A DNA stretch of 63,966 bases, filler included, from Phoronis australis (GCA_002633005.1; 6 parts of 6 records of this genome joined end to end with filler, not necessarily neighbours in it); one strand, 5' to 3'; positions 793-51,408 are shown, numbered from the whole stretch's first letter. Numbers and translations: made by a program. The notes: generated by a model not told the origin, from the sequence alone.

Positions 793-837
793 CAGTCTGA
801 TCCACACAATGGCATCCAGGATTTGGGTTTTCTCTTC
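793..837 (-). CDS. Exon 5: 45-nt nAChR-type exon (loop D region); gene continues left of the window
   Basis: Acceptor attatag, donor gtgagt. EEKTQILDAIVWIRL resembles the 45-nt DEKNQ(V/I)LTTN.WL exon of nAChR genes. Confidence 0.88.
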
Positions 838-1174
838 CTATAATTGAAACATTTGGTCACTCAATGATATTTAGTCAGCCGCTACGCGCTACAAACTGGT
901 TAACCATACTTCTCGGATAGAGGTAGACTTAACACGCCCAATGTACCGCGAAGAAAAATCTCCTATTTGTAGCATATGAAATAACCGTGCCTTGATTGAT
1001 TTCCACTGAGGAGATGATAGAAACGAGATCCATAGGGAGGTCAATGGTATGATCATTTCACTCTTTAACCATCATATGCGCACTTAATAATCTAAATCTT
1101 ACCACGAACGTGTTTATCAATATCTTTGTAAACACCATTATTTACATTTGTTAAAAGAATAGCGACCAACTTAC

Positions 1175-1311
1175 CAAGTCAAGTATTGTGTATAAAGACA
1201 AGCCAATGGAGACAACCACGTTGTTTTTGTAGTTTTTGAGAGGTCTGGCACTGCTGACATAGTTTCCAAGAAGGTGTTGTTGCAGCTTAGCGTCAAGATT
1301 TTCGGCACTTA
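1175..1311 (-). CDS. Exon 4: start of Cys-loop (nAChR-like) ligand-binding domain
   Basis: Acceptor ttgttttcag, donor gtaagt; 137 nt, phase 1 to 0. (V)SAENLDAKLQQHLLGNYVSSARPLKNYKNNVVVSIGLSLYTILDL matches the nAChR pattern L..LL..Y...RP.....V.V..GL.L..I.D. Confidence 0.88.
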
Positions 1312-2279
1312 CTGAAAACAAACGTAATACAGGAAAATCTACACAACTGATAGAAACAATGTTCTTGTCGACCGTTTTAAACTTAATTATGAGAACTTTA
1401 GTTGAACTGAAACTACGTTGATTCTGTGAGGGCGTCCGGACTCGGCCGTAAAATATAGTGCGTCATTAAAGGTTAATGCCGGGAATTCTGCACATTTGGA
1501 TAAACAACAAGAACTAAAATACGAATCTTTATATGACAGGATATCATGTTTTTGTAAAAATAATAATTCGAAACCCAAGCTTTCTCGAAACCCGGGGAGA
1601 CTTAAAGACGCATGGAACGCGAAAGCTCGTCAAAATATCTCTTAAACGATTCCTGGCGAAAGTACCATTACGCAGCATCTACATGTACTTTTGATAGAGT
1701 AATTCACTTTTCTCTGTGAGAGAATTACCACGAAATATCCAAAGTTCTCGTTTGTGGAATACGCGCAAAGGAAAAACTCTGTAGTCTCCACATAGTTTTT
1801 AATCTTCCTCCCACTTGTGGTAAACAAGCGCATGCGCCCACAGCCCTTCGACAAACAGTCGACTAACAAGAAGGATGTTAGCGATAGATTATCATGTGTG
1901 ATCGCATTCCGAATCTCAGGTTGACATTACAGTATGACGTAAGCCCATGAAGCAAGAGATTTCCCAAAGAGAAACCCCGGTGCATTTTAGAATATAGTTG
2001 AATACTACGACACCTTTGCAACCTATATTAAACACAAGTTGCCTCTTAACTAGATGACTAGTAGCCATTTCACCAAGAGACAAAACTTTTGGATACAAAG
2101 TTAAAAAATTTCCACGCGGTTTAAAGTGTTTCTGAGGTCGTTCTGTTGAATCTTTTTTCTCGCTACGCGGTATATACATGTATTTCGTATTTGAAGTTCA
2201 CCGAGAATGAAGTTATGTTATTTTGCTTCACTTGTGAAATATTGTGAAAATGCCCAATTTTAGTGAATAAGGCTTGGGA

Positions 2280-2520
2280 TATCCTTAAACTGCCACCCAT
2301 GTCTGAAACCATGGAATGGCCCCGGGCAAGACATGGTATTCCCTAAGATGCTACAGGAAGCAAGAGACAAGCCTTTCCAAATTCTGTCTAATCTTTATAA
2401 GGCTAGTCTTATACCAGGCTACATCACAGAAACTTGGACTAAGGCGAGGGTTGTTTCCATTTATAAACCTGCTAAGGATTCTTACTTCTAAACTGAGCAC
2501 TATAACTCTTGGAAGTGCTT
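2280..2520 (+). mobile_element. Degenerate non-LTR retrotransposon RT N-terminal fragment
   Basis: Reads GPGQDMVFPKMLQE...LYKASLIPGYITETWTKARVVSIYKPAKDSY, matching the PG.D...IP..W..A.V..I.K..K.DY pattern; interrupted by a stop. Confidence 0.65.
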
Positions 2521-4752
2521 ATTGGTTTGCCCCTCTTGCATATTTACCTCAGCAGTGAAGCTGTGCTAGCAGTTTACTGCATGCGGTGTAATGGGTAGTA
2601 GAATAATGTGCGAATCACTGATACTGTTTCTCACAAGAGCCATAATAGTGTATGCAACAGGTTAATGTCAAAAACTGGAATACTTTTGGCAATGCCAAGT
2701 GATGTTTTAGTGACAACCCTAAATCACAGACACAATTTCTACACAGAAATTGGATACGGTCACGACATGCTATGTCAAATAAGGAGACGCGCTTTGCCTT
2801 GTGGGATAAAGCAATAGATGAGCAGTTGACATATCGTTTTTGAATTTTTAAACCAAAAGAAAAATGTTTTGACATCAACAGAAATTCAAAGTCTTTAAGA
2901 ACAAACCGTAAATATATCTGTTGAACATGTTGGATTCTATTTCAGTGGCAGAGAGTCACTTTGAATAATGCATTTTACAATGTAGTCTGTTCTCGTGTTA
3001 CATGCTGCAAAAGCAAGATATCGTGAGATTCCACGAGATATCGCCATTATTTTCAATGACAGCATGTAATTTTTGCTACATTTTTTCGCTGCGACACAGT
3101 TACTGAACTCGACTTCAAGCGACTTCACTGCCATTTTATGCTGTGCGTTGTTATTGCAAAATCGCCTTCTTCGTTGCCAACTGAAGTCATTGGTCTATTT
3201 CTTAATTTTAAATCCAGGTGAATAATTCGTGGGAGTTTTGTAAATTCTTAATATACATGTATCTGTAATCACAGGAAGCCCATTAGCTCGCCCGAGTGGG
3301 ACTTGATCTATGCTACGTGCAGTAGTACGCGACCGTGTCTGCAGAGTTGATGAACAGAGCAAGACTGACTCTTGGTTGAAGAAGAGTTTTGCGTGCCCGA
3401 CTGTATTTGTTTCCGGCGTGTTGCTCATACTGAACAGATTTAAACTCTTCCTCGGCATACACCGTAAACATTTCTGCCACTGATAAGTGCACAGAATGAA
3501 ATGAAAGTGAATTCATGTGACGTCGTTTTATTTCGACAAATAGCTGTTTTACAAAAGTGATATCCAATTATCTAAAAAGTCCCTTTAGTTCCCAATATTT
3601 ACTCAAACGTCCGTTAACGCACACTGACATCGTAAACTAATGTGACTTATTTCTGAAGATACCGGTGAGTTAAGGATCTATGTAATGGCTTATATCTAGT
3701 GGGTCCAATTGTCGTTTAGAAAAGGCTGTACGTTTAGTTTTTGTGAAATTTTTAATTTCAACTTTCCCGTGCCATATATTGCCAAGTACATAGTTTTCGA
3801 ACTAAATGATTACTATTACCAGAGCCTCCCAAAATGCCCTTCGTGCGATGACATAGTCACGCATGCGCTTACATAGGCACGCATGCGCCTACATAATTGT
3901 ATCTCCCATCAAAGTCGCCATCTTTCCATTAACATTCGATTCAACCGGAGAAGCACGCGAGAATCACGGGACGTAATCGGTAAAGGGAGGCAGGGAGAGA
4001 AATTAATGACTAAGAGTGCAGAAATTGAAATTTGAAAGGCTAAGTAAGGAGCGATAAGTACTCCATTTCGGCTGGCGACTCTGGGGATTTGTTTTAGAAA
4101 ATTTATTTAAAAGACAAAGACGTTTGTTCTTGTCCCAATTTACAATTGCTGAAAAAGGTATAGTCAAGTTATTATGAGCGGATAACTGTCTGGAAATAAT
4201 TGACAGAAATTATCTAAGTAACTATCAATTACGTGCATATTCTCAGAGGCTGTGCACCTCTCCTCAAGGAAATTTAATTATTTTCCTGAAATAGTTTTTG
4301 GTAGCGTCAGATCAATTCTCTGACTCAAGAAATGTTTCGTGAAACAGATCATTGGATTGTATTACTGGACGAACCTTTCAAAACTAGTTCAATCGCACTG
4401 TGCGTTTTTTCTTCCGCAAAATGGAAGAGTTGGATTCGAGGCATAGTGGAAAATCTTTGCCCTGTCACGGAGCATAACGTGGACGCAAGAAATTCGCAAG
4501 ACAGTTGTGGTGAGATCAGCTTATGGAAGACGTTTTACTGACACAAGTTTACTGACACATTTACAATTCCATTTCAATCGACCAAGCACTATCCTTTCAC
4601 TAGCGTGACTTTACAAGGTTTGATGTGATCTCTTTTTTTCTCAAGTAAGGCAACCCACGCAAGGAATAATTGGGCCACCTACCTAAACTCGGGTGAAACA
4701 TGTACGCTACATTGACCATATTGAACGTGCCTGTGTAACTAGTAGTACCTAC

Positions 4753-4842
4753 CATCTGTAGGCTTTCCAGAAGCTGACGAGCTAGATGTTGTGGCGAAAC
4801 CACGAGTGTCATCTGTCGTTGCTTCAATGCGGTTGGTAGAAA
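4753..4842 (-). CDS. Exon 3: 30-codon Ser/Thr-rich linker
   Basis: Acceptor tttctcttacgcag, donor G|gtaggt; 90 nt, phase 1-1; encodes (V)STNRIEATTDDTRGFATTSSSSASGKPTD. Confidence 0.7.
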
Positions 4843-5140
4843 CTGCGTAAGAGAAACACTTGGTGTTAAGTTTAAAGATAGTGGGAAACAATTTCTTGTA
4901 TTTTTACTACAACAAAGTGACGAAATTCTTGTTCAGCTGCTCGTTATTCACTCAACAGAAGCAGAGCTACACGTGAACACAGCAAGTTGTAGCAGAAAGC
5001 GCAAGGGCGCGAAACCTGGTAGCAACGGGAGGACTGAAATTAGCTTGGACATCAGGCAGACGCCATTAACTTTACCTTATTTTTGCAATAACAGAGGAGA
5101 TTCCGTAAAAATTCTATATCTGGCTTTCCATGTACTAAAG

Positions 5141-6432
5141 AACAAGAGCAACGCGGAGCGTTGAAATGCGCCCACGAATGCATTGCAAATGGTGTGCTTT
5201 TAGGGTGATTTATTTGTATCATAAAATGGCCACTAGATGGCGCAAAACATACGATCCCTCCAAAAACAGGAACATGCCACACGTCATAAAACTCTGTCAA
5301 GAAGCTTCAGAGAAACAAAGGAAAACGGAATAAAATGAAATTGCCACTAGTGGGCACAGTGTTCGTTGGATCTGCCTGAAAGTCGTCGTCGTCTGCTGTT
5401 ATCTTCATGTAAATACACTTACTAAAGTTAGTAAAGATCCTGCAGTGGGTTTAAGACATACAACTATGGGCGCAAAACAAAACTACCACTAGGAGGCGCC
5501 ACAGTAGTCAGTCACCATCATCAAAGGCCGTCTTCACACTGAGAGCATATATGCCAATTTTCAAATGATTTGGTTGATACAGGGGTGGACACCAAAAACA
5601 AGATTTGAAAACAGCAAAAATGACCACTAGGTGGCGCAAAATACCTCAATTCCATCCAAAAACAGAAAGATAGCGTCATCACACCAATAGCTGCCTATAC
5701 TTAAAATTTTATGAAAATCTGTTGAGGACCTTTGAAGATACTGAGTTAAACGTAAAAACTAAAATTGCTACTAGGGGGCACAGTAATAGTCAGATCTAAC
5801 AGAAAGTCGTCGTCATCCGTGGTCAACATCACATCAATACACTTGCTAAATTAAGTAAAGATCCTGCGAACGGTTTAGGAGATACAGCTATAGGCGCAAC
5901 AAAAACAAAACTGTCACTAGGAGGCGTCCCAGTAGTCGAAATCATCGGAAAATCATCGTCAACCGTCCTCTTTATAGTAAGCACATACAAGCCAATTTTC
6001 ACAATCATCCTTTGAGCGGTTTGGTTGATAGAGGGGTGGACGTAAAAACAGACTCGAAAACAGTAAAAATGGCCACTAGGTGGCGCAAAGTACGTCGAAT
6101 CCATCCAAAAACAGGAGGATAGCATCATCTCACTAATAAGTGCCTACATACCAAATTTCATGAAAATCCGTTCAGGACTTTTGGAGGTACAAAGGAAAGC
6201 GTAAAAAAACGAAAATTGCCACTAGGGGGCACATCGGTAGTCAGATCCATCCGAAAGTTCGCTCATGCCGTCCCATACATGAATAGAACATATGTGCCAA
6301 ATTTCATGAACGTATGTCAAAGGGTTTTGGACATAGAGCAGCGGACGCCGGACAGACGAGGCCCGGAAAAACGGACGGACGGACGGAGATGATGGCATAA
6401 TGCGTCCACATATAAATATGTGGGCGCATAAT
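5141..6432 (-). mobile_element. Helentron-associated non-autonomous element (HINE/DINE-1-like), copy 1
   Basis: Subterminal IRs ATGCGCCCAC/GTGGGCGCAT. One end has hairpin atgcgtccacatataaatatgtgggcgcat next to (GACG)n; the other has stem-loop caacgcggagcgttg. Internal ~145-bp tandem core repeats and A/T-rich flanks. Confidence 0.8.
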
Positions 6433-6720
6433 AATGAGTGAGACCACTAATTCCGGAATAAACATGTCCGCGATTGTACTTCGGGGACCGTTTTTAGTTA
6501 TTCTATTGCTCATGGCCCTAATTTCGCCTATGACTGTATCATTAACTTGAACAGTTTTAACGGGCTGGGGTAAGTAGTCTTTGAAGGAAATGGCCGCACA
6601 CGCATGCGTATCACATGGAAGACCACAGCAGGAAGACAAGAACAGAGACAAAAGACAAAGATTACGGAATGGAGATTTTACGAACCGCTATCAATTAAAC
6701 AAATGGAAAAGGTACTCCGG

Positions 6721-7011
6721 TTAACGGTTGAAGCCATGGGTGCAACTTTTAAGTAACAGCCAAACGTCAAACAACGTTAGTAGGGTTAGCGCATAATCTC
6801 TCACAATCACGTTCAAGGCGGGTATGTCTCTATGCCATCCACCCCACAGTCCACTGGCGCCTAAGTGGAAAGTACACGTTATAGTGTACCATGTAAACTG
6901 AAAGTCATTATGGTTTCGTAAATGCCCCGAATTCAAATACGTCTCAGACAGATTCACCGTCCAGATACTCTGTATGGTACTCATGGGAGCTGACTCAACT
7001 TTTGATATCAA
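6721..7011 (-). mobile_element. Possible degenerate LINE APE-endonuclease fragment
   Basis: LSETYLNS...FTWYTI...WGG...DVWLLLK loosely matches the LSETWL / GY.I / GGG / LWL motifs of CR1/L2 endonucleases. Confidence 0.3.
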
Positions 7012-7458
7012 GGATTTTCAGCAAATTATGCATTAAGCTGGAGTAACCATCTGGGTTAGGTGTTTTAACTCTCTTTTATATAAAGTCGGTGAGTCAAAGA
7101 ATAGACTCATGGTTGAAAAAATCATTAAATTAAGATGTGAGAAGTCAAATACAGTGTATGTGATAAGTAAACCTCCTCAGAATATAGAATTCTAAACAGG
7201 AAATGCCAGCTGCGACCTCACGTGGCTGAAGTTGCACCGTGCGTGCGTGGAATTTGATTCTATTCGCCTGCTCCGCTGTTATTTCTTGGTATGGAACACA
7301 AGGCTTAGGGACGGTGGAATGTTTGTTTGGTGAAACGAAGTAAGCTTAGAACTGCATGGCAAGCGTATCAGCAGGTATTACAGTGCATTCGTATTAGCTG
7401 GGCGGTGACATTTTCATAACAAGTCAAATTCTCAATTTTTAATTTGGTGAATACCTAC

Positions 7459-8775
7459 CCAGTTGTGTTACTGAATTACTTGATTCTAGAGATGTGTCCC
7501 CTGCATCTGTGGAGAGGACTCTTACGCTAGAAGGAGTATTCGTCTGGACGATAGTCGTTGCATCGGTGCTCCTTAATTCAGTGTTCTCGTTTCGGCTCAA
7601 TTTCGACGGATTTGTGGTTGTTATGGGATCATTTGGATCTGGAGATATTCTCCATGGTTCAGTATAGTAGAAGTTTGCACTCGATGTGGTGATTGCCTGA
7701 GCTCGAAAGAAGGTATTGGTGTTTGTCAGTCCTGCTTGCTCTTTTGTGCTTGAAGTCATTGATGGAATCGTGACACTCATTGGAGCAATTGATTCTGAAG
7801 ACATGTCCCCGCGTGTCTGAGTGGAGTGGACACCTTCACTCAGTGAGGCAGTCGTCTGAATTAAACTCAGTGCATCGGTACTTGGTAATCCCGGAAGCTC
7901 GTTTGCGCTTGAGACCGTATACGGATGTGTGGTTGAAGCCGTATACGGAGGTGTGGTAGTCGATGGATCGTTCGATTCTGGAAGTGAGGCCCATGTTTCT
8001 GTAGAGTGGATGGTGGCACTCGACGTGGAAGTTGTCTGATCGCTGCTTGGAAAATCCGTGTGTTCATTTAGGCTTGAAGTTGTTGACCCATTCCCGTTTA
8101 TAGGCTTAGTAAGTCCACCGGTTGATACCGTACTCAAGTTACTTCCATGAGAAGCCACCATGTTTGCCGTGGGTCCAACACTGACCCTGACTGTTTGCGT
8201 ATTGTTCTCAGATTCGGTAGAATAGAAGCTTGCACTCGACGTGGTGGTTGTCTGAGCTCGAGCAAAAGTATTGGTGTTTGTCAATCCTGTTTGTTCTTTT
8301 GTGCTTGAAGTCATTGATGGAGTCGTAACACTCATTGGAGCAGTTGATTCTGAAGACCTGACCCGTGTCTGAGTGGAATGGACACCTTCACTTAATGAGG
8401 CACTCGTCTGAATTAAACTCAATGCATCGGTACTTGGCAATTCCTGGAGCTCGTTTGTGCTTAACGCCGTAGACGGAGGTGTGGTAGTCGTTGGATCGTT
8501 TGATTCTGGAGGCGAGGCCCATGTTTCTGTAGAGTCGATCGTGGCACTTGATGTGGCAGTTGTTTCATCGCTGCTTGGCAAATCCGTAACTTCATTTGGG
8601 ATTGAAGTGGTTAACCCATTTCCCGCTGTAATCGTAGTAAGTCCACCGGTTGATACCGTACTCAAGTTACTTTCATGAGAAGACACAACGTTTGTCGTGG
8701 ATGCAACACCTACCCTGAATGTCTGCGTGTCGTTATCAGACGTTGTATTACCGCTCGCAAATTCCGGTACCACAG
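7459..8775 (-). CDS. Exon 2: 439-codon Ser/Thr-rich mucin-like domain with internal duplication
   Basis: Lies within ORF 7439..8902. Acceptor ttttgccctgttgtag, donor G|gtaggt; 1317 nt, phase 1-1. Completes the signal peptide (..LSVAVVPEFASG|NTT). Confidence 0.85.
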
Positions 8776-10959
8776 CTACAACAGGGCAAAACAGGGCTCT
8801 ATATTTAGGGCGAAACGCCGTTGTATACTCAGGGTGAAACGCCGCACTATGTTCAGAAATGGCGGAGTGTGTCCTATCATTTACTAAGTTTGCATATGTC
8901 ATGACTTCTTTAACAACGTTTCACAAAAAATCCCGCTATTTCCCGAGTTCTTTGGATTATATGCCCATCATGGACCTCATCATTCTGTACAGGTCCCTTA
9001 AAGGTTGTTGCCATTATATGAGAGCTAAAATCACAACATGTACTTCCTGACATAATCATGCATTTTTCGTCAGAAACTTTGGTCTTTTTGGCAGGTCCAG
9101 TAAAGTCACTGGACTAAGGTCCATCACGTGAAATACTATTTTACTTTTCAAACCCTTCCACGAGGTAGAAATGTATAGAAGAGACAGAAAACAGTGCACA
9201 GTATTCCCACACGAGACAAAGAAGACAAACTACATTTTTGGGAACTCAGCAAACATGCATATCTCGTTTTAGACAGCACAATTTGGTTTTACTCGTTTAA
9301 AACCCATGAATATATGGCAGCACCATACGTTGTAAATCCCATCGTTATAATTCGCTTCCATAACAATCTTTAAAGCGGCAATAAGTTCTCATTACGTCCA
9401 CAAAACAAACGCAAGATTTAAACAAACTATTACAAAACAACACCGCTTTACGCTGGTCTCAGCTTGTTCCTTACTCGGATAAGTCACTTTTGGCTTTGTA
9501 CAGAACTGACACTTTTTCACTCCCTGCGACCATATTCTAGAGGTTGGTCTCAAGCCACAGATATTATTCAGTTCTGTCGAAGTCATTAACGAAAAAGTTA
9601 AGCCCAATTTCATAACAGAAATCGTCCTAAATCAACTGTTTTTTGTGAAGGAAGGTGGGTTCATTGCCGCTTTAAATATTGAGTTTGGCACCAACGCATG
9701 GACGACGAACAAACGTACAGTCAGATAAACGGATAAACAAATAAACGACACTATACGGCTAGAAAGAGGGAGCAAACAGGTAGACATACATGCATGCGCC
9801 ACCGTACGTAGAACATTCATCGTAATGCTTTCAGACTATATTTAGTCACGCTCAGTTGTCACATGGAATACACGCACTTAATATAATTCAATTAAGTCAA
9901 AACAACGGGAACAGTCAATTCCAACTCCTAACTCCAAAATAATGATCATTTTTTAACTCGGAAAGGTGCTAACGTACATGCAAGGAAATGAAATCGTCAA
10001 CGTCCGGGACCTAGTTTCGCAGGGCTTCACTAGTCACCGGCACGCACGGTGTTCCACTGCAGACCAAGTCAACTTGATGATCACTCACAGACAGGCGCTG
10101 GATAATCTCACTACGTTGGTTAAGGTGGAAATCTCTCGCCGATGCTCGTTACCTCAGAAAGCAGTTCAGGCTTTGGTGTGCTTTTAACTACTTCCTAAAC
10201 CCACCACCAGGAGAGAACAAACCTAGTGCCGCAAATTTCCGTAAATAAAAGCGTGACGTGGGTCTAGCCTATTCAGAAAATAAAATTGCTCGTGCCAGGA
10301 CGGAAAAGTAAATTCAGCCATACGCTTGCCCCCCCCCCAGTCGTACGACGTAGGCCTATATTTGGCATAAGATACGTAGCCTGTGTCATGGTAAATGTGT
10401 TCTCTGGTAAGTAAGTTTCCCAAACAGTTAAAAACCTTCCCAATACCCAGGTCTGACCTATCTCAGACCCAGATTGACCTTCTACAAAATTTCTTAAGCG
10501 TAAAGTAAAAAATAAATATATCATTTATGAGCAAGTCCCATTTTTAACAATTCGCTTACTCATAAATGAGTACATAAGGGAACTTCTACTTACTGGGGAA
10601 TCTATTTACCGAGACACTGGCTGTTAAATCGAAAACTCCACGGTCATTATACGGTTACATAAGGTAACTGAATTGTTTCATTAATAAATTGCACGGCAAT
10701 GAGTTATGCATAATTATCACATGCGCTTTGAATCAGTCGAGTGTAATAGAGTCACGTTATATTGTTTTCCGTATTCCACTCCCGGACTACTTCAACAGTG
10801 CCCTCTGACATGGAAAGTTCAATAGGTAGGTCAATGTCGACTCGACATCGTTAGCTAGTTCGATCATCAAACCAAAATAGTTTAAAGTAATATAATTGCA
10901 GCAGTAGAAATAACACTCAAGATACAATCAGGTCCCAAACGTAACATCTGGTACAAAAC

Positions 10960-11330
10960 AGTTAATGCATGACACCTCTGTCTCAGTTTTCAATTGCTAA
11001 ATACGATATCGTCTGCAACTCAGGCGCCGATTCTTCAGTAACTACACTGTCAAATGACGTTGTTATTTAACTAGTTAACTAATTTCAAAATAATCTTGAA
11101 TAAACCCCTCCAGCTGTAAGTGCTTGGACAGCCGTCGCGAGAGAGAACACACCTTGAGTCCAATGTAACGCTGCTCACGAGAATGGAGACGAAGACATTC
11201 GTCCATATGACATGTGAATTGGTAAACAATGTACATTTGGCCTCTGATAGTAGTCTTTTTACGAATGTGGTTGTTTTTCATGACAAGATCATTTTGTACA
11301 TCAACATGACCGAAAAATAACTGGGCAAGA
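10960..11330 (-). mobile_element. Penelope-like element GIY-YIG endonuclease remnant
   Basis: ORF 11075..11281 reads VMKNN...IVYQFTCHMDEC...RYIGLKVCSLSRRLSKHLQ: VY-x-YIG with Cys/His spacing typical of PLE endonucleases. Confidence 0.7.
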
Positions 11331-12853
11331 AATAGTAGACAATACCATCATTCGCTAAATTGAAAATGACACATTTCGGCTAAATATCCGTCACGAAAAT
11401 CCTGTGTTAAAAAGCAGCTCACAGGTGTGTATCGCACGCTGGCTCAATCTGTTTCCATAGGGTTGCAGCCTTCCTACCGTGTGTTGCATTTACAGGCTCT
11501 GCTTGTATGCCCGTCTTCCCGTTGTCACGTGTATTTCACTGTTTATTTCGCTCCCTGTATGTTCATTCCACTCATTGCCTGATGATGTGACATGCAGTCT
11601 CGAAATATAGCTAGTGTTTTAATTTGTTTTTTTGTTATGTCTCTCGGTGCTTTACTACATAGCTGCACACCTGAAGAAAGGAGATTGTTCCGACACTACG
11701 AGCGAATCAGTATCAAGCTTTCAAACAAAAAGCTAAGACGTTTTCAACGATGTTTGTGTTAACGAAAGGCTGCAACCGAACTACACTTATGTTATAGAAG
11801 ATGAATGTCATTTTCAATTGAGTGTCCGCTTTATGACTACCTAAGAACAACTTTCAAGTCAATAATTATACTGTAAATTTACTTTGTAGACATCATGTTG
11901 AAATGTAGTATTTTAAAGTTGGTTCAGTATTTGTTGGCTGCTGGTATATAAAGGGACGATGGAAATTCATTATTTTTGTATTTAAAACCATGTATATGGG
12001 CTGGAGGCCCGCTTTGCACAACAAGGAAAATAAGCTCACTCAACACTATTACGTCACTTAGCTGAATTTGTACAGTGGTGACCTCTTCATAACACATCCA
12101 TTACACGTACATGAATGAAGAACATCGTTTTTCAAAACTCTTTTACCGGAGGGCTCGCCAAAATTTTGGAATAACATTATCAGGCGATTTCTCAAAATAC
12201 TTTGAGCAAAAAAATGTACAACAATGTCGTCATGTCATGTTATCTACCGTAAAATTCATTTTCCGTGATACTGTAGAGTGTAGAGATGTATTGCGAAATC
12301 GGACAGTTCCTTTGGGTAGGGGCATTTGCCGGGAACAATGGACCCTTTGAATTTGCCAAAGGTTAGTGCTGCCACGTCAAAGATGCCACTATACTCAACG
12401 GCATCTGCCCCTGGACTACAGAGTATTCATAGGAAAGTATACTGCATTTAAAAGCCACGCCATGTGTTTATTTGTATTCCCTTCTCGAAATCAACTTTGA
12501 CTGGCTTGTTTTTGTTTAGGAACTTAACAGGTAAGGTCATTGTAATTTCGTGGATATGTAGCAGCGGTAGTAATCGGGAGCATCAGCAAAATATCACTTT
12601 CTTGTTTTCATTTGGAACAACGCAGTAAGTAATCGGAAAATGTACCTACGATTCGTTTAAAATGAATCGTACGTCTGGAAGCGCAGTAGGGTGTTTCTAG
12701 ACGTTCAGTTCAGCTAATGCTAAGTTCAATGAAGGCCACCACTATTAATCACGATTACGTGGACTCTTCTCTTTTCTTTTCACGGAATCACAGACACGTA
12801 ATGGCACTGGCAGAATCCTTTTTCTTGAAATAATAAAATATAAACCTACTCAC

Positions 12854-12896
12854 CGACAGATAGCGTAAGCAAGGCGATCGCTGTAGAGGCTTTCAT
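12854..12896 (-). CDS. Exon 1 (signal peptide) of mucin-domain Cys-loop receptor-like gene
   Basis: ATG at 12896 gives MKASTAIALLTLSV plus 1 nt, then a GTGAGT donor (phase 1). Basic N-terminus followed by a hydrophobic core. Confidence 0.8.
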
Positions 12897-13354
12897 TTCG
12901 AGAAGTAAGTGATGCTCCAACTACTTCTAAGCGATACGTGTACTGAAAATTTCATAACAAGTGTTATTTAAGATTTTAGGAAAAAGTCCTCATTTGGTCA
13001 ACTTACAAATAACACTTTTAGATATTATACTTTATACAATGTTCTTCAAAAACTGCTAGAAATTGTCTTAAAATGGCCTACTTATGCACGAGGGGTTATA
13101 AAATTAGGATTTTCATAATGCAATCAATTAAACTTGTACCAAACGAAATCGAAATGATAATTTAGGAACACGGTTTTCGATATTTCATTTAAAAATTTAC
13201 ATGTATATCAAACAAAATTTGGCCACGTATTGATATTGTTGTTTTGCTATGCATGTACCGTTGAATCATTTCTGAAAATTTTTTACTTAAACGACATGTC
13301 GTCAACATTTAAACCAGATTACATAATCACAACCGGTTTTACACACATTCTTTC

Positions 13355-19600: not shown

Positions 19601-19700
19601 NNNNNNNNNNNNNNNNNNNNNNNNNNNNNNNNNNNNNNNNNNNNTTAATTAATTAANNNNNNNNNNNNNNNNNNNNNNNNNNNNNNNNNNNNNNNNNNNN
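19601..19700. other. Artificial contig spacer (N-TTAATTAATTAA-N)
   Basis: Identical 100-nt spacer also at 23043-23142, 34361-34460, 45298-45397 and 56972-57071. Confidence 0.97.
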
Positions 19701-20146: not shown

Positions 20147-20318
20147 TTAGCGGACTAAAGGTGTTTGTTTAAGCTGAAGCAGTATTGATCGCATCCTTGA
20201 AACATCTTTTGTGTTCTTGGAATTTTTCGGGTTGAATTCACACAGGCGAGCAATGCGTTCCCAGTCCTGCCCTGGCACTGATTCATCCCTGTCCTTGACA
20301 AATTCTGCTTCTGCCTCT
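20147..20318 (-). CDS. Clc: Clathrin light chain, last coding exon
   Basis: Acceptor cattacag (phase 2). EAEAEFVKDRDESVPGQDWERIARLCEFNPKNSKNTKDVSRMRSILLQLKQTPLVR* is the characteristic CLTA/CLTB C-terminus. Confidence 0.95.
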
Positions 20319-21454
20319 CTGTAATGCCAAAGGTGAAAGTTTAGAATCCAAATAGCCAATCACTGGAAATTGAGATGAGAAAAACCAAGAGGTATTTTCA
20401 CAGTTGTGAAGAGGCAGAGAATTAATGTTACATTCTGTATTGTCAAAGAATTTTAAAAGAACCTAGTATTCTAACATTTGCTACATAAGGCAACACTAGA
20501 GGCTATTATCTTACTCATATCAGGGACTAAAACGTGCACCTAAAGTAGTTCTATTCCCTCAGTGTGACCGCTACAGCGTGCAATCAATTACTCATCTAGT
20601 GAACCCGGCACGCCTGTTGCATGGTAATTTATAGGTCCAAGCGAGAGTGACATGTATTACTAGAACGAGTCATCTGAGTGACAAATGAGGCCAGGACGAA
20701 CTTAGTCACTCCTTTCTCTAACTTTTGAAAGTTCAGTAACAAGTGTGGTTTCGTTTTTCTCATAAATGACTAAATATACAAAACACATCTATCAACAGTA
20801 TTTACAGTACGGTTTATTAGTTTTGAAATGAAGTGCCCTGTGTAAACTATGTTGTGTCTCATCTCACCAGACCTCACCTAATCACCCGTTTTTACATTTT
20901 TTCCATCAATGCAATGTGTCATCTGCACAAGAGTACATGTAAAGTGTTCTCACATGAGCCCAAATGCTTACAGTATCGATGTAATGAACCCTCAATAAGT
21001 TAGAAAGATTGAAATATTCACTTGTATCAGGGCACTAGAAGAACAGAGACAAAATTTTCAGTTGTAAACTGTGTACATTTGCTACAAAAAGCAGAAATGT
21101 TTTTGCCGATTGACAACGATGTGACATATGGCCAATGCAAACAACTGTACCTTTCACTCCAATGTAAATTGTACTTAACATCGAATATCTACAGTACTTC
21201 AATTGCACAAACAATACATGTGGACTAATATCTACCACAAACCACAAGTGACGAGGCTCAGAAGGGAAATTCATAGAGGTCAGCTACAAGCAATTTCTCT
21301 GATGGAGAACCTTTTTCTGAACTTATTTAAGATTTGTGGGTAGAACACAATTGTGCAACCACCAACTCCATGTCGACAAACACAACCAAAACTACAACAG
21401 GCTAACACCTTGCACCAGGTGACCGCAACAACAAACGCCATAGGAATTACTCAC

Positions 21455-21537: not shown

Positions 21538-22830
21538 AACAAGAGCAACGCAGAGCGTTGAAATGCGCCCACGATTGCACCGTATACGGTATCCTTCTAG
21601 GGTTGTTTATTGGTACCATCAAGTGGCCAGTAGAGGGCATATATGTAGTATGTTGTACTTTGCAAAATGGAAAGGCATGGTCATTGTCTCCTCAATAGGC
21701 TAGGGGCAAAATNCGTAAAAAAATAAAATTGCCACTAGGGGGCACACTGGTAGGCGGATCTGTCCAAAAGTCATCATCGTTTGTTGTTAACATCATACTT
21801 ATTAAATTTCGTAAAGATCCTGCGAACGGTTTAGGAGATACAGCCATAGGCGCAAAAAAAAACAAAGCTGCCACTAGGAGGCGCCACAGTAATCCAAATC
21901 GTCTGAAAATCATTGTCAGCTGTCTCCTTTATAGTAAGCACATACATGCCAATTATTACAACCATCCTTTGAGCGGTTTGGTTGATAGAGGGGTGGACGC
22001 AAAAATACAGACTCGAAAACAGTAAAAATGGCCACTAGGTGGCGCAAACTATGTCGAATCCATCCGAAAACGGGAGGATAGCGTCACATCACTAATAGGT
22101 GCTTACATACCAAATTTCATGAAAATCCATTCAGTACTTTTGAAGATACAAAGGTAAGCGTAAAAAACTAAAATTGCCACTAGGGGGCACACCGGTAGTC
22201 AAATCCGTCTGAAAGTCGTAATGTTCCGTTGTTAACATCACATAAATATACTTACACAATTTCGTAAAAATCCTGCGAACGGTTTAGGAGATACAGCCAT
22301 AGGCGAAAAAAAAAACTGCCACTAGGAGGCGCCACAGTAGTCGAAATCGTCGGAAAATCATCGTCAACCGTCCTCTACATAGTAAGAACATACACGCCAA
22401 TTTTCACAATCTTACTTAGAGCGGTTTGGTTGATAGAGGGGTTGACGCACAAAAACAGACTCGAAAAAACTAAAAATGGCCACTAGGTGGCGCAAACTAT
22501 GTCGAATCCATCTGAAAACGGGAGGATAGCGTCATCTCACTAATAAGTGCTTACATACCAAATTTAATGAAAATCCCTTCAGGACTTTTGAAGATACAAA
22601 GGTAAGCGTAAAAAACTAAAATTGCCACTAGGGGGCACACCGGTAGCCGGATCCGTCCGAAAGTTCGCACATGCCGTCCCATTCAAGATGGAACATATGT
22701 GCCAAATTTCATGAACATATGTCAAAGGGTTTTGGAGATAGAGCAGCGGATGCCGGACGGACGCCGCCCGTACGGACGGACGGACGGAGATGACGGCATA
22801 ATGCGTCCACATATAAATATGTGGGCGCAT
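21538..22830 (-). mobile_element. HINE/DINE-1-like element, copy 2 (extra partial core unit follows to ~23040)
   Basis: Same termini, (GACG)n and core repeats as 5141-6432. Confidence 0.8.
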
Positions 22831-23142
22831 AAAAATAAAATAGTCACATTTAAAGATGCACGAAGATTCATTGATGAAGTCTAAAGACACAGAGACAAAC
22901 GCAAAAAAATTGCCACTAGGGGGCACAGTCATATTCGGATAAGTCCAAAACTCATCAGCAGCTCCTCACAAAGGTCTTTTAAGGGTTAAAGAGATTCAGC
23001 CATGGATTCAAAAAACAATAAATCACCAATGGGGAGGGTGGGNNNNNNNNNNNNNNNNNNNNNNNNNNNNNNNNNNNNNNNNNNNNTTAATTAATTAANN
23101 NNNNNNNNNNNNNNNNNNNNNNNNNNNNNNNNNNNNNNNNNN

Positions 23143-34360: not shown

Positions 34361-35600
34361 NNNNNNNNNNNNNNNNNNNNNNNNNNNNNNNNNNNNNNNN
34401 NNNNTTAATTAATTAANNNNNNNNNNNNNNNNNNNNNNNNNNNNNNNNNNNNNNNNNNNNTCACCAATCAGGACCATGCAATTATAGAATTTTTCACAAA
34501 AAACGCACAAAACACCCCAACTCCTGAAAGTGTACACAAACAGGGACTTCGACAGCTTACAGGAAAGGCGACTGAAAGAGAAAATGTTATGAGGGGACAA
34601 TTCCTCCGGGTTGTCACATGAGGTGAAAGTGATCCTAAACTCAAAGAGCATTTCTGATCCAAGGGGATTTCTGGGTCTAGGAAGGGGAATTCCGTTTGAT
34701 TTTTAAATGTTTTTCTGAGAAGAAAGAAGCCCATAAAAAATCAATGCATTGAGGGCTTTGACAGAAGTGGGAATATTTTTGTACGATGATAATTTATTTA
34801 AGAAAATTGTATGTTAACATCTGCTCTTATGAAACTGCCTGGATGTTGGAAGTTTCAGTGAGGCATATCTGTCATACTCTGCATGTGGATAAACTGAAGT
34901 ATCCATTTACGAGTCACGATTTGAAACGATGACAACTCATATCCATTCTATTTAACACCCAAGGCATTTCAATTGAGGAACTAAAAATCAGAGTATGAGT
35001 GTTAAAGCCACATGCAAACAGCCCATCTTCAAACGGCCATTGTTTTTGGCTTGTTTCTTGTGGTGTAAACCTTATATTTTACATAGAATTAGCCTTCCCA
35101 ATTGCACATGATAACACTATCCACTGAATGAAGTTCACCATTTGTTTGAATGCGGAGCTTTAACGTCACTACCTAGGGTTCGTTTGAGTTAGAAGTTCGT
35201 GACTTCGGCTCAAATCTATTTTTCACTACATTGGGCTTCAATTTGAGTTCATCGGTGCATGGAGATCAAAAACTTAGTTGTTAGAAGGTTTTTAGCCTAA
35301 CGTTAGCAATAACTCGAACTGATACAATCAATTAGTAGGTAATATGGTGGTCTGAGCCTCTGGGTCAGCATGGGTTACCCACAATGAGTACGGTACATTA
35401 ACAGTACTTCTAGGGTCAGAGCCTCTGGGTCAGCCTGCTTATACCTACAATATGTATTCACCAATAGCACTACAGTGGTCTGAACCTCTGCCAGTCGGCC
35501 CGAGTTAACCACAGTGAGTACACATACTCACCAACAGTAATTTGATGGCCTGACCCTCTGTCTCAGCCTCATTGTCCATAATTAGTACATATGTACTCAC

Positions 35601-35862
35601 CAACAGTAAGATCATCCAACTCTGGCACAATAGGTAAAGTCCAGCCCAGAGGAACCAACGCATGAGTAATCTGACCCATATTGACCATTGGCTCCACTCG
35701 TACCACCTGGCGGTCTGTATCAATGTCCAGAATGTCCATCAGGTTGATGTGGATGTTTCTGCAAGTGTCTTTGTAAACACCCTGTCTAAAACTGACTGTC
35801 ATCCATCCAGGCCGAGACGTACACATGGTGTTCTTGCACCCATCTTCTCGCCATCTGCGGAC
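35601..35862 (-). CDS. DHCR24: Delta(24)-sterol reductase, exon 2
   Basis: Acceptor cataacctcag; [28 protein letters not shown]...[11 protein letters not shown]...[12 protein letters not shown](G)|gtgagt, the FAD-binding region of DHCR24. Confidence 0.95.
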
Positions 35863-35904
35863 CTGAGGTTATGAAGAGAGTCATGAGAAGACAACAAGAG
35901 AAAA

Positions 35905-38979: not shown

Positions 38980-39363
38980 CTCCGCTGATCACCAACCGGG
39001 AATGACAGCTCCCGTGCAAAACGCCGTATCGAACCATAGGGGGTTAATCTAAGTAGGTCAAAGACCACAGGTTAAAGGTTGATGTAGAAAAGTATAAATT
39101 ACATAAGTGAAAGGAGCTGCTATAAAAATCATATTCATTATAAATTAAGATTAAGACTATGTGTCATTATACTAATATTATATTTCAACATAATTTTTGT
39201 GGATAAATACTGCATAACATTTTACTGGATAAAATTATAATAATTTGTTTTCTTCTTTAAATTTCCTCTGTTATAGTTACCCTGTTTCCCGCCTTTCTAA
39301 ACACATGTGCCCAGATTTGTTGACGTTTTGCAGCGAATTTGTCTTTACAAGTCTTGCTTTAAA
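38980..39363. promoter_or_regulatory. Putative bidirectional promoter DHCR24/UHRF1
   Basis: 384 bp between divergent ATGs in one contig. E2F-type TTTCCCGCC at 39285-39293; AGGTCA-like half-site array at 39055-39081. Confidence 0.65.
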
Positions 39364-39516
39364 ATGTGGATTCAGGTTCGCTCCTTCGATGGCAAGACAT
39401 CAGTGCGAATCGACAATCTTTCAAAACTAACAAAAATTGAAGAACTGCGTGAAAAACTGACCGATGCTTTTGAGGCTCCACCGGAAAGGCAAAAATTGTA
39501 TTACCGCGGAAAGCAG
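39364..39516 (+). CDS. UHRF1: E3 ubiquitin ligase UHRF1, first coding exon (ubiquitin-like domain)
   Basis: MWIQVRSFDGKTSVRIDNLSKLTKIEELREKL...ERQKLYYRGKQ|gtgggt; 153 nt, the diagnostic UHRF N-terminus. Confidence 0.95.
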
Positions 39517-39938
39517 GTGGGTCAAAATATTTGAGATACAGTTCATTAGCAGGTGATTAGACACTTTGTAACGGCTGTGCTCTCTGTCTAATTGACGATC
39601 ATTTGGTAAAAGCAATATATTTGCATTGTACTGTAGGTCAAGCACATCTGCCACATCTACAAAAATTCACGCATTGTCATTGACCCTGACCTGAGACCTT
39701 GGCCTTTTGCCTTAAAGTACAAAGCATAGCCATAGTCTCTGAACAAATGTGTCCTTGTTGTGAATAAGACGGGGAGGAGGGGATTCACGGTTAGGCAACT
39801 GCATCTCTTGGGCACTGTTCAGATATAGCGGTCCCTGATTTTGAGAACCAGGCAAGCACTGAATCATTAAACACCCGCAATGGTATGAGTATCCCGATTA
39901 AAAGACTGACCACCTAAAAGACTGACCACCGTCTCTAC

Positions 39939-41475
39939 ACATAGTGTACCTAATTATCGGACGGAACCTAAATATCGGACATTTCATAGAATCGTACTTG
40001 AAGCATAATCTGAGAATTAAATGACGCCAATTTTTGGGCACTAGTCGGATATAATGGACCCTAACTTATTCCAAACAAATCCACTAAATCACTAAATGTA
40101 GGTCTAAATGAATGATTTTGGTGTCGTTGCATTCCTCAGACATCTGGCTATCCGTACAAATGCTTTTCACGACCCTCAATTACTCTAGTCTATAACTACG
40201 CTGTTCCGAACTCGGTCCACTTTAGCCACGCACATCGTGAAATCGGCAGCCATTTCAGGGAACTTACTGTATCTAGCGACATCTATCAGCGATTTGCTAC
40301 AACACACGCTGTTCCTTTTTCATCAGTCAACGTCATTGGTCGATTTCGTCAATTATTAACGACAGTCGTTATTAATCATCGTACGTCTGCTCTCGTCATC
40401 ACCTTCGTCGTCTCTCTCACGAATGTATCTGTCATCATCATGTTATCGTCGCCCATGTTGACTGATGAAAAAGGAACAGGGCGTGTTGTAGCAAATCGCC
40501 AATAGATGGCGCTAGATATAGTAAATTCCCTGAAATGGCTGCCGATTTCACGATGCGCGTGGCTAAAGTGGACCAAGTTCAGAATGGCGTAGTTATAGAC
40601 TAGAGTAATTGAGGGTCGTGAAAAGGATTTGTACGGATAGCCAGATGTCTTAGGAATGCAGCGATACCAAAATCATTCATTTAGACCTACATTTAGTGGA
40701 TTTATTTGGAATAAGTTAGGGTCCATTATATCCGACTAGTGCCGCTTTTTGTTCCGTTGTAATGCATTCAATGTCCGGCACCGTCTGGTTTTTTTACAGC
40801 GTTGCCTCGTTTTGATTTCACCGAGAGAGGGTGCAATTTAGACCCCCAAGTCGGCCTAAAATGGACGATCGCATAAATCGGTTATAAAAGTTGAAAATAA
40901 AATCTTTTTCCACAATGAAACCATCTCGTTGAACTGACAATATGTCACTGTTCCATTTTTTCATTTGTTTTTAAACTCAAGTCAAACCCCGACCGCGCAC
41001 GTGCGGGTGTCATATCAAGAAGCCGAAGTGATACTAAAAACTGCAGTGAGTTTGAACGTGCCTTAGTCGTCTGCACTAATTCATCGAAACGACTTGGCGC
41101 CGTCATCAGACTTTATTTCATGGATAATTTTGTTGCGAATGGACCTGTGTTCTAGCAGCATATATGTCAAAACACTCGAGCTGAAATTTGGCTACAAGGT
41201 GCCCGCGGCCATTACGTGGTTAGTCAGTTTTCTGCGGTGTGGCGTATGGGGAAACATGGTTCCGATATTTAGGTTCTCAGAAGGTTTGTTTGTTGTGTTT
41301 TTTAAAGATCAGTCGGAACATAAATGTGGCTTTCAGTGACAAGATATAGCAACAGAACAATTCCTTGAAGGTAAGTCTTTATTTCAGAAAAAAATTTACA
41401 ACAATCCATAGTATTTTCAATTAAATATAATGCAAAATGTGCCAAAACATCCGATAATTAGGTCACTTGACTGTA
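39939..41475. mobile_element. Tc1/pogo-like MITE copy 2, interrupted by a nested element
   Basis: Matches 26052-26875 apart from a ~707-bp insertion. Confidence 0.75.
40037..40743. mobile_element. Foldback MITE with ~300-bp arms (possibly Merlin-like)
   Basis: Ends ggcactagtcggatataatggaccc / gggtccattatatccgactagtgcc; flanks aatttttg / gctttttg; absent from the copy at ~26140. Confidence 0.8.
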
Positions 41476-41486: not shown

Positions 41487-41995
41487 GACGGTGGAGCTCT
41501 ATAGGCGCTTCATATGCCGGAAGCTTTTCGGCAAATTATGCTTTGCACTGACTAAAACTAAAAAGATCAAAGAAAGTCACGTTGTTATAAATTACCTTTT
41601 GCGCATAAAGGGACACCTTAGGAGGCCATCGATGTATTTAATTCCTTCCTACTCGAACAAATACTCCCATTACCAAATTGTTTTTTCGGGCAGCCCCTCG
41701 TTCAGTTCCCAAAATTGATAACATTTTTAACACTGTGCGGCAGTACGTGGTATGGCGTCATATCTCCTGGCGTGCGCAGTGTTAAAATGGTGAACGAGGG
41801 ACTACTGGAAGAAAAAGATTGATAACGGGAGTATTTGTTCAAGATGGAAGGAATTAAATACATCGATGGCCTCCTAAGGTATCCCTCTATGCGCAAAAGG
41901 TATTTGTAACAACGTGATTTGATGTTTTAGTCAATGCGAGGCATATTTTGCCGAAAAGCTTCCGGCGTCTGAAACGCCTATAGAAGCTCCTACTG
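41487..41995. mobile_element. Palindromic MITE (~250-bp arms)
   Basis: ggagctctataggcgcttcatatgccggaagcttttcggcaaa... is the reverse complement of ...tttgccgaaaagcttccggcgtctgaaacgcctatagaagctcc. Confidence 0.7.
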
Positions 41996-46037: not shown

Positions 46038-46283
<246 letters not shown>

Positions 46284-50491: not shown

Positions 50492-51250
50492 CTGAAATGA
50501 AATGCACAGGTAACATGAAATGTACTAATGTGCACAAAAACACAATAATAGGCAAAGAAGCCATACTTCAATAATGGACGCTTCCAAAAAGTAACAAACA
50601 TTTTGCTCAGAGACATATAGATCAGTAATGTTTTTTTCTATTTTTTTAAAACGTGACTTTGAAACACATTAACAATCAACACTTACTTAATTTAATTTAA
50701 GAGCAAGTACTTAATAATGTCTACTATAACAATGGGTAACATGGATTGATACATGGTGGTATTGTTAAACAATGGCAAAGTGTGCCATTGTTGTTATCTG
50801 AGATATAAGGAACTGGGATTTTGAGTGAAACCATCATGACAAATCCTCATTGTGCAACGCTTCTGTCAATCATACAGCTAAGCAATGCCCAGCCCCCAAA
50901 CACTTCCTCTTGCCCTACCAAGCATATATTCATAAGTCCCATGTATTACCTACCAGAATTTTCTGCACACCCGTCAATCACACTTGTCAATCACAGTAAT
51001 GTACCACCCACAATCAACACCCTAGATGTAGTTTAGCCTCATTGGTGTTCAACATTAAAACTTCCATTAGGGCCCAAAACACACTCACACAACATTCAAG
51101 TCAAGAATGAGAACAGAAAGCCAAAGACAAGTAGTGCAAACCTCATAATTTGCCACTAAACATAGGATTTGAGCGTGGGTAAAAAAGTGAATGTTTACAG
51201 TGCAAACACGTGCAGCACACTGTTCTCAATACATCGTAATAGTCACGCAC

Positions 51251-51408
51251 CTCGCCTTTCAGTAGCATCTCATACATGAACTCGTTCCACGAGACGTACT
51301 TGAATGCTGAGTTATCCTCGCCCTGCAGTAGGCGACTCAGTGTGAAGAAAGTGAAGGCTAACCAGAACCACACCACAAACCTGGGCACCATCGGTGGACG
51401 CTCCTCAT
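51251..51408 (-). CDS. SPG7: Paraplegin exon (TM1)
   Basis: (D)EERPPMVPRFVVWFWLAFTFFTLSRLL...YVSWNEFMYEMLLKGE|gtgcgt; matches the ISWNDFVHEMLAKGE-type motif. Confidence 0.9.

Follow-up and report, generated by a model that had tools for sequence, protein, structure and literature searches.

A candidate nicotinic/5-HT3-type receptor gene of Phoronis australis predicted to carry a long Ser/Thr-rich N-terminal stalk

A locus of Phoronis australis appears to encode the start of a nicotinic/5-HT3-type subunit that carries, within one chain, a Ser/Thr-rich stalk of ~460 residues. We regard it as somewhat probable that the two parts form a single protein in which the stalk serves as a passive glycosylated brush. 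The gene lies on the minus strand of the window, by which we mean the whole stretch of 63,966 nt that was analysed (filler included), and comprises five exons (Table 1). All donors are GT and all acceptors AG, the phases after exons 1–5 are 1, 1, 1, 0 and 0, and the 1632 nt form 544 codons without a stop. No N occurs before position 19601, so the five exons lie in one contig. A sequence-only reading had described this same exon chain, and our recomputation reproduced it.

Table 1. Features of the locus, in positions of the window
Feature	Position	Strand	Size and phase	Content
Exon 1, coding part	12896-12854	minus	43 nt; phase-1 donor	ATG and most of predicted signal peptide, residues 1-14
Exon 2	8775-7459	minus	1317 nt; phase 1-1	Signal-peptide end and Ser/Thr-rich low-complexity stalk, residues 15-454
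Exon 3	4842-4753	minus	90 nt; phase 1-1	30-aa Ser/Thr-rich linker, residues 454-484
Exon 4	1311-1175	minus	137 nt; phase 1-0	Initial 45 residues, Cys-loop extracellular domain
Exon 5	837-793	minus	45 nt; phase 0-0	15 residues including E-K-x-Q-I-L and W-x-R
Likely 5' UTR, same exon as exon 1	12897..12942	minus		RNA to 12913; extent to 12942 from depth arithmetic only, ambiguous
Interspersed repeat, non-coding part of locus	5141..6435	.		Fills half of intron 2
Stalk repeat unit 1	8213..8740	minus	528 nt, 176 aa	
Stalk repeat unit 2	7658..8212	minus	555 nt, 185 aa	77% aa identity to unit 1
Older partial third repeat unit	7460..7657	minus		Exon 2 end; local alignment to unit 1 residues ~74-133

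Transcript evidence for the gene model

RNA data came from four runs of the species label, with reads placed at 97% likeness. Placement at 90% likeness was dominated by the intron 2 repeat, which has copies at 21538-22836 and 61776-63079 and attracts a deep multi-copy read pile. Two of the four joints are listed in RNA, each in two runs. The exon 1–2 joint (12854/8775) is crossed by a contig of run X4 (depth 12.8, side 53) and two X2 reads, and the exon 3–4 joint (4753/1311) by an X4 contig (depth 12.2, side 67) and one X1 read. Both match the prediction exactly and have CT..AC ends on the plus strand, indicating that the signal-peptide exon leads into the large Ser/Thr-rich exon and the Ser/Thr-rich mini-exon into the receptor. 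Moreover, exon 3 feeds exon 4 in both runs that show the exon 4 acceptor, so that one result named beforehand as refuting the model, a different first exon between 1312 and 4752 feeding exon 4, was not seen; no candidate signal-peptide exon was found in that interval, and none that was strong in 4843-7458.

The remaining joints are less well covered. Transcripts across both 4753/1311 and 7459/4842 had been named as the check on the model; the former was seen, whereas no listed RNA read or contig crosses the latter (exon 2–3), 7324-7737 and 4820-4839 are devoid of X4 contigs, and 7459/4842 is not listed among the joints from read runs. The exon 4–5 joint (1175/837) is likewise absent from the listed joints and is implied only by depth arithmetic on one read pair, with ~21 nt of X1 depth within 700-1113. 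Outside the repeat bins, three contigs account for the whole X4 depth of the gene; they lie on exons 1–2, 2 and 3–4 at similar depths (12.8, 17.6 and 12.2). In each run, a single cDNA fragment may underlie each observed joint. About 10 reads inside exon 2 (about 8 in X1, 2 in X2) have the orientation opposite to that of the spliced reads, and no sense-oriented pair lying wholly within exon 2 was seen in the RNA runs. At the 5' end, X4 contig 5 covers 12854-12913 with its first 46 nt unplaced; an AG at about 12943 is a possible acceptor for an upstream non-coding exon.

The splicing of exon 2 to exon 3 is suggested by several features of the two exons. Exon 2 ends in a phase-1 donor, TGG/GTAGGT, 18 nt ahead of the read-through stop. 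Exon 3 has 13 Ser/Thr in 29 codons, whereas Ser/Thr make up about 15% of intronic frames (binomial p ~1e-4), and its composition (S 0.19, T 0.21) continues that of exon 2 (S 0.21, T 0.24). The open frame within which exon 2 lies extends over 493 codons, compared to longest frames of 115-177 codons in 20 shuffles of the window.

The receptor domain and the stalk

The sequence-only reading had assigned the receptor part to the Cys-loop (nAChR-like) family and named the lack of a ligand-binding-domain match as a refutation; domain and structure searches bear the assignment out. Exon 4 matches positions 3-40 of the 216 in the Pfam ligand-binding-domain profile PF02931 (E 1.9e-4, 21.3 bits), the only family match at E <= 1; being a 45-aa fragment, it scores under the curated 26-bit whole-protein cut-off. 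At E <= 10, 31 of 33 PDB matches are pentameric ligand-gated ion channel (pLGIC) subunits (16 5-HT3A, 15 nAChR; among them 6w1j, 4pir, 5fjv and 9dmg), the best being 5-HT3A (E 0.004), followed by nAChR subunits, and neither an anionic subunit nor an AChBP is among the 33. Judged from these 45 residues, exon 4 is thus nearer to nAChR/5-HT3 (the cationic clade) than to GABA-A, GlyR or GluCl. By homology, it corresponds to the N-terminal helix and beta-1 of the extracellular domain. Since the PDB matches start at residues 2-8 of mature-numbered chains, the stalk directly precedes the first helix. AF2 folded exon 4 alone as one continuous helix, an uninformative fragment model.

Exon 5, which we take to be the beta-1/beta-2 segment with the loop-D Trp, is too short for searching and gave no Pfam or PDB match, also with intronic read-through. 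Its motif is unique in the six frames of the window, and its W-x-R presumably resembles that of 5-HT3A and alpha9/alpha10. A motif scan of 1-792 found no further receptor exon or expected downstream motif; the Cys-loop and TM1-4 would lie beyond the left edge of the window. A motif scan found no second nAChR exon set in the window, nor did a Pfam scan of 150 of the 155 open frames with at least 62 codons that lie past 13 kb.

The chain begins with Met-Lys and contains a sole hydrophobic 19-mer among its 544 residues (KD 1.69 at residue 3; hydropathy only), as expected for the predicted N-terminal signal peptide. Between this and the receptor lie about 460 residues (~24-484); the long Ser/Thr-rich N-terminal region proposed earlier therefore stands, although at slightly less than the ~470 aa then claimed. 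The exon 2 portion is 39% S+T and 46% S+T+P, has no Cys, and contains six N-glycosylation sequons; Pro accounts for about 7% of the stalk. Long, Ser/Thr(/Pro)-rich, low-complexity, repeated and Cys-free, the stalk has the sequence character of a mucin-like (PTS) domain, and its composition predicts dense O-glycosylation. It has no match in Pfam and no SEA, vWD or EGF domain. AF2 gave a mean pLDDT of 35.5, with 433 of 437 residues below 50, although single-sequence, alignment-free folding lowers pLDDT regardless. Repeat units 1 and 2 differ by indels of 24 and 3 nt, both frame-keeping, and dN/dS between them is 0.47 (p = 0.03-0.055 with transition-bias control), giving a modest indication of purifying selection. 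We asked whether a 239-nt 'goes back' joint in X4 contig 4 could reflect a back-splice or an additional repeat unit, and rejected both, as it has no GT donor and is out of frame.

We propose that the first intron acquired two symmetric phase 1-1 exons, that the larger of them grew by internal tandem duplication, and that a Cys-loop and four TM helices are encoded downstream of the window. The stalk would be N- and O-glycosylated. No Cys, RxxR or dibasic site occurs in the 544 aa, and the lack of a furin-type site suggests that the stalk stays attached. A pentamer might carry one to five such stalks, according to its partner subunits, forming a sugar brush above the channel mouth and outside the gate. 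Such a brush would pass small agonists while keeping away large proteins, peptide toxins, proteases or apposed surfaces; it would fit best at an exposed, non-synaptic location. Skipping of exon 2 alone, or of exons 2 and 3, keeps the frame and would yield a near-ordinary subunit. One caveat is that short N-terminal tags can lower surface expression of neuronal nAChRs and impair assembly, according to the available text of PMC4786271, and hence a long stalk may not be tolerated.

Competing readings of the locus

As the exon 2–3 joint is unseen in RNA, exons 1 and 2 could encode a secreted mucin-like protein ending in intron 2, with a separately produced receptor that starts from another first exon or skips exon 2 and bears only a 30-aa Ser/Thr extension. 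We consider this unlikely. An ATTAAA at 7443-7438 on the minus strand overlaps the read-through stop (7441-7439) just inside intron 2 and could serve as an intronic poly(A) signal, giving a secreted isoform of the stalk alone; no RNA support for this role was seen. A skip from exon 1 to exon 3 keeps the frame, and there is a weak hydrophobic first-exon candidate at 5052-5016 (donor CAG/GTTTCG). However, the exon 1 donor joins exon 2 in both runs that show it, no exon-skip joint is listed, half of the 2.6-kb gap is repeat element, and chance would have to account for both the phase-1 donor at 7459 and the agreement in composition between exons 2 and 3. The idea that the mucin exons end in their own poly(A) site also finds no 3' UTR coverage behind exon 2, where depth in 6496-7323 is zero in all four runs at 97% likeness, although at this low depth the point carries little weight. 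Alternatively, the fused chain may be real and the stalk a repeat expansion that is tolerated and close to neutral, with splicing often shortening or removing it; the same is suspected for exon 2 of rodent GABA-A epsilon. The latter has six splice variants, and whether its repeat is translated is unknown (PMC11641399, in part); exon 2 of the Phoronis gene also contains in-frame internal donor-like sites (8671, 7480) and acceptor-like sites, selection between its units is weak, and no homologs were found. Yet its 437-codon frame stayed open through two duplication rounds, both indels have lengths divisible by three, there is an excess of synonymous changes, and the exon 1 donor was seen joined to exon 2 alone. 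This explanation, too, seems to us distinctly unlikely.

Other readings accept the fusion and differ in what it would do. Mucin domains are typical of secreted proteins, and the product might be a pore-less, AChBP-like ligand-binding protein that its stalk retains in mucus or matrix, where it would buffer agonist or toxins. No receptor exon follows in 1-792, TM exons would lie outside the window, and LBD-only genes are common in the mollusc and annelid nAChR sets of Table 1 in PMC6896357. We find this improbable, in that 31 of the 33 PDB matches are channel subunits and none an AChBP, LBD-NTM is the majority architecture (69.4%) in the same survey, as far as its accessible portion goes, and some LBD-only models may be truncated predictions. 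A bolder proposal is a nicotinic-family cation channel fused to its own glycocalyx, every subunit bearing a mucin stalk of up to about 100 nm. Anchored by these stalks in the mucus or matrix at an exposed surface, the channel would sense contact or touch, and exon skipping would switch between a stalked sensory and an ordinary synaptic form; we think this very doubtful. Least probable in our view is a stalk that acts as an active tether, binding matrix, mucus or surface and pulling on the N-terminal helix to yield a mechanosensitive channel or contact chemosensor, an idea of the sequence-only reading for which we found no support. The stalk does join directly to the first helix, which tops the extracellular domain; as cephalopod chemotactile receptors illustrate, the family can be repurposed for contact sensing (PMC13174522, in part), and the N-terminal domain of bacterial DeCLIC modulates gating (PMC12664993, in part). 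But the stalk has no recognisable binding domain, Cys for cross-linking or confident fold, and a long disordered chain would transmit force poorly unless anchored and taut. The passive brush remains the account we prefer.

Comparison with known systems and meaning

Protein searches with exons 2 and 4 revealed no homolog sharing the stalk-receptor architecture. For exon 4, none of 21 candidates among longer proteins reached E <= 10, and none of 1.84 billion representatives reached E <= 0.001. For exon 2, 7985 and 7989 candidates among longer and near-length proteins gave no match, and exact look-up of two read-through forms of its frame returned 0 of 2. Of 595 pattern matches in metagenome contigs, none was confirmed and no related locus emerged, and neither exon 4 nor exon 2 had a usable match in the ESM Atlas. 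Such negatives carry little weight, since 45 aa is too short and the stalk is of low complexity.

In nAChR genes, the signal-peptide exon is followed by exons of ~140 nt and 45 nt. The Phoronis gene shares this order, and exon 4 aligns with the initial ~45 residues of the mature extracellular domain of 5-HT3A and nAChR subunits; however, that domain starts a few residues past the signal peptide in those proteins, compared to about 460 residues here. The receptor part, at 60 residues, is too short to read subtype, agonist or alpha/non-alpha status. Like membrane-tethered mucins and mucin-stalked receptors, the product has a signal peptide and then a long Ser/Thr/Pro-rich, Cys-free, internally repeated region, but with ~7% Pro, a long repeat unit, no SEA/vWD/EGF domain, and an ion channel rather than a single-pass helix as anchor. 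The Drosophila alpha5 subunit may have a long N-terminus, but we found no confirmation of this in the literature, including the available portion of PMC9110030.

The first three introns are common to all vertebrate nAChR genes (PMC6354393, in part). The accessible parts of PMC1363348, PMC3269439, PMC2792709, PMC11037462, PMC4795631 and PMC8634148 are silent on long Ser/Thr stalks, on exon sizes and on the loop-D motif, PMC11037462 mentioning only a 54-aa GRD insertion. Expanded invertebrate nAChR-like families show comparable lineage-specific diversification, with 33 domain combinations, some including dynamin or GAIN domains; that survey counts SMART domains and, in the part available, lists no mucin or low-complexity stalk, nor would it detect one (PMC6896357). 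Cephalopod chemotactile receptors are described as intronless with a remodelled pocket (PMC13174522, in part), whereas the Phoronis gene is intron-rich. The prokaryotic pLGIC DeCLIC also has an extra region N-terminal to the extracellular domain, but one of folded, calcium-binding lobes (PMC12664993, in part), in contrast to a low-complexity stalk with no predicted fold.

The sole comparable published extension that we found is in rodent GABA-A epsilon (Gabre), whose exon 2 encodes a repetitive Pro/Glx insert of 400-483 aa (PMC9312946, PMC1975676, PMC11641399, each in part). The architecture thus has a precedent, contrary to the sequence-only reading, which knew of none in eukaryotic pLGICs. 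In both, an animal Cys-loop subunit bears a repetitive, low-complexity and lineage-specific insert within its extracellular N-terminal region. Epsilon, however, is an anionic subunit with a Pro/Glu/Gln-rich insert confined to mice and rats, whereas the Phoronis gene is of the cationic clade and has a Ser/Thr-rich stalk with N-sequons, units of 176-185 aa and two symmetric exons. The two are non-homologous by any test applied here, and convergence seems the likely explanation. For the cationic clade, we found no earlier example of a Ser/Thr-rich N-terminal stalk in the literature.

Animal Cys-loop subunits normally begin a few residues past the signal peptide. Because its symmetric exons can be removed in frame, the stalk offers a clean test of what N-terminal extensions do. 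Surveys of invertebrate nAChR expansions that rely on domains overlook low-complexity extensions, and gene callers may split loci of this kind. If the model is correct, the stalk is as long as the rest of the receptor, the top of a pentamer can carry large glycosylated chains, and the gene would join rodent GABA-A epsilon, with its repeat of no known role, as a second and independent case.

Exon structure and the receptor start

The locus is a real, transcribed gene of unusual architecture. Its five exons sum to 1632 nt, or 544 stop-free codons, with phases of 1, 1, 1, 0 and 0, and the AG and GT boundaries throughout agree with the canonical, phase-compatible splicing proposed in the sequence-only reading. 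As the first N of the window lies at 19601, this part of the gene is contiguous. The open frame of exon 2 runs to 493 codons, compared to 115–177 in 20 shuffles of the window.

Exon 4 (45 aa) has PF02931 as its sole Pfam match (positions 3–40 of 216, E 1.9e-4), which bears out the ligand-binding domain expected there. When exon 4 was compared with the PDB at E up to 10, the 33 matching sequences comprised 16 of 5-HT3A, 15 nAChR subunits and 2 internalins; 5-HT3A was the best match (E 0.004), and GABA-A, GlyR, GluCl and AChBP were absent. The PDB matches start at residues 2–8 of mature-numbered chains, indicating that exon 4 encodes a normal receptor start. Among the six frames of the window, an E-K-x-Q-x-L-type motif occurs only in exon 5, which we take to encode the beta-1/beta-2 segment with the loop-D Trp; exon 5 alone gave no Pfam or PDB match. 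In nAChR genes, the exons following the signal-peptide exon measure about 140 and 45 nt. According to PMC6354393, every vertebrate nAChR gene shares the first three introns. The receptor portion inside the window ends at exon 5, a motif scan of 1–792 found no more receptor exons, and the Cys-loop, loop C and TM1-4 would fall beyond it. Exons of neighbouring genes (clathrin light chain, DHCR24-like, UHRF1-like and paraplegin-like) show an intron-rich animal genome.

Features of the window, with positions along the whole stretch
Feature	Position	Strand	Remarks
Exon 1	12896-12854	-	GT donor
Exon 2	8775-7459	-	AG acceptor, GT donor
Exon 3	4842-4753	-	AG acceptor, GT donor
Exon 4	1311-1175	-	AG acceptor, GT donor
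Exon 5	837-793	-	AG acceptor, GT donor
Stalk repeat unit 1	8740-8213	-	176 aa, in tandem with unit 2
Stalk repeat unit 2	8212-7658	-	185 aa, 77% identical to unit 1
Interspersed repeat, about 1.3 kb	5141-6435; 21538-22836; 61776-63079		internal tandem unit of ~450 nt
Clathrin light chain, last coding exon	20150-20359	-	PF01086, E 2e-18; upstream neighbour, same strand
FAD_binding_4 exon	35572-35868	-	E 3.5e-5; presumably resembling delta-24-sterol reductase DHCR24
Ubiquitin-like domain exon	39301-39531	+	E 1.2e-7; presumably resembling UHRF1 N-terminus; between DHCR24-like and paraplegin-like exons, opposite strand
m-AAA protease AAA and FtsH_ext exons	46038-46283; 51146-51466	-	weak PDB match to paraplegin; paraplegin-like gene, as judged from peptides
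Self-inverted elements	40037-40743; 41493-41990		84% (726 nt) and 76% (534 nt); resembling foldback elements or MITEs
Direct duplications	29844-30934/31699-32792; 46955-47678/47677-48401		98.9%; 96.7%; adjoin single-N gaps; both probably haplotype or assembly overlaps
Weak tRNA match	55139-55212	-	scores 31.2 bits against a cut-off of 29; may be a repeat derived from a tRNA

Composition and repeats of the stalk

The stalk, encoded by exons 2 and 3 between signal peptide and receptor, spans residues about 24–484. It is 39% Ser+Thr, Cys-free and carries six N-sequons; the two exons are acidic (D+E 45 versus K+R 18), and exon 3 keeps the composition of exon 2 (Ser/Thr 13/29). Across the 544 aa, the only hydrophobic segment is N-terminal, and there are no RxxR or dibasic sites. 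The stalk has no Pfam match. AF2, run on the single sequence without an alignment, returned a pLDDT of 35.5, which is consistent with disorder but falls short of proving it.

Indels of 24 nt and 3 nt distinguish the two tandem units of exon 2, and the exon also carries an older, partial unit. Between units 1 and 2, dN/dS is 0.47 (Fisher p 0.004), but under transition-bias simulation the selection signal reaches only p = 0.03–0.055, and the absence of stops in the units alone is unremarkable (p 0.12). Coding constraint on the repeats is thus likely, yet modest.

RNA evidence and the probable link between stalk and receptor

RNA data, selected by species label, comprised three read runs (X1–X3, 18–19% of each sampled) and a contig set (X4), presumed to be RNA. 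Splice joints were called at 97% likeness and listed when seen in three reads or one contig. Eight of the 11 listed joints fall in the intronic repeat, one within exon 2 and two between exons. The exon 1–2 joint (12854/8775) is carried by an X4 contig (depth 12.8, short side 53 nt) and 2 X2 reads. An X4 contig of depth 12.2, with a short side of 67 nt, shows the exon 3–4 joint (4753/1311) predicted from sequence, as does 1 X1 read (21 nt). Spliced reads are oriented as minus-strand RNA predicts. By depth arithmetic, three contigs of 156–161 nt fully account for X4 depth in the exon bins. The same arithmetic reveals an X1 pair with 21 nt on exon 3, 261 nt within the bin of exon 4 and about 21 nt in 700–1113, a pattern that points to an exon 4–5 splice. 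Each exon joint that was seen may rest on one fragment per run. The exon 2–3 joint (7459/4842) is uncovered, X4 being empty over 7324–7737 and 4820–4839.

The 1.3-kb repeat family yields very many reads, with a strong bias to one strand. Another X4 contig (depth 17.6) jumps back 239 nt within exon 2 (7763–8001); this joint is out of frame, lacks a GT donor and is absent from X1 reads, and is likely a template-switch artefact.

We consider it highly probable that a fused stalk–receptor transcript exists. A phase-1 donor lies 18 nt ahead of the read-through stop of exon 2, with a phase-1 acceptor 2.6 kb further, composition matches on either side of the gap, and no good first exon intervenes. 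A scan for hydrophobic ATG-to-GT first exons found five candidates in 4843–7458, of which three lie inside the repeat and two have weak donors and share the ATG at 5052. The scan found none in 1312–4752, where the sequence-only reading had allowed for a different first exon feeding exon 4. Counting against the spliced reading are reads of opposite orientation within exon 2 (7473–8565; about 8 X1, 2 X2), in libraries that are stranded (1187 versus 26 on the intronic repeat). These reads, which have no matching coverage in the flanking unique intron, may derive from an antisense exon or from transcription of a copy at another locus. It is also possible that an exon 2 transcript ends in intron 2, apart from the receptor, giving two genes or products; ATTAAA overlaps the read-through stop. 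A 3' UTR behind exon 2 was not seen (zero depth in bins 6496–7323 in four runs, at low overall depth). Skipping of exon 2, exon 3 or both keeps the frame. Because intronic polyadenylation and in-frame skipping are possible alongside the fused form, the signs of one gene and of two can both be true. On balance, stalk and receptor are probably fused.

Precedents, origin and possible function

The sequence-only reading knew of no such architecture in eukaryotic pLGICs; long repetitive N-terminal inserts are, in fact, already known there. In the openly available literature, no cationic subunit with a Ser/Thr-rich, mucin-like stalk was found among the listings and abstract openings from full-text searches, nor in passages of PMC6896357 (a survey of nAChR domains), PMC4795631 and PMC13174522. 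Domain surveys omit low-complexity regions, so invertebrate proteomes may contain many comparable examples that go unannotated. Protein searches, weak for such a query, returned no homologs.

Most likely, the first intron gained two symmetric exons, the larger of which would then have expanded by duplication. The product is predicted to be a subunit of a cation channel whose vestibule-rimming helix carries a disordered, glycosylated chain. Five stalks per pentamer would need a homopentamer. The proposed tether function is unsupported. Having neither a binding module nor Cys, the stalk would more probably act passively, as a spacer, a shield or a trafficking signal, than by transmitting force. 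Densely O-glycosylated chains extend 0.25 nm per residue, and the synaptic cleft measures 20–50 nm. If densely O-glycosylated, the stalk could reach about 100 nm, exceeding the cleft, which suggests that the receptor occupies an exposed or extrasynaptic site.
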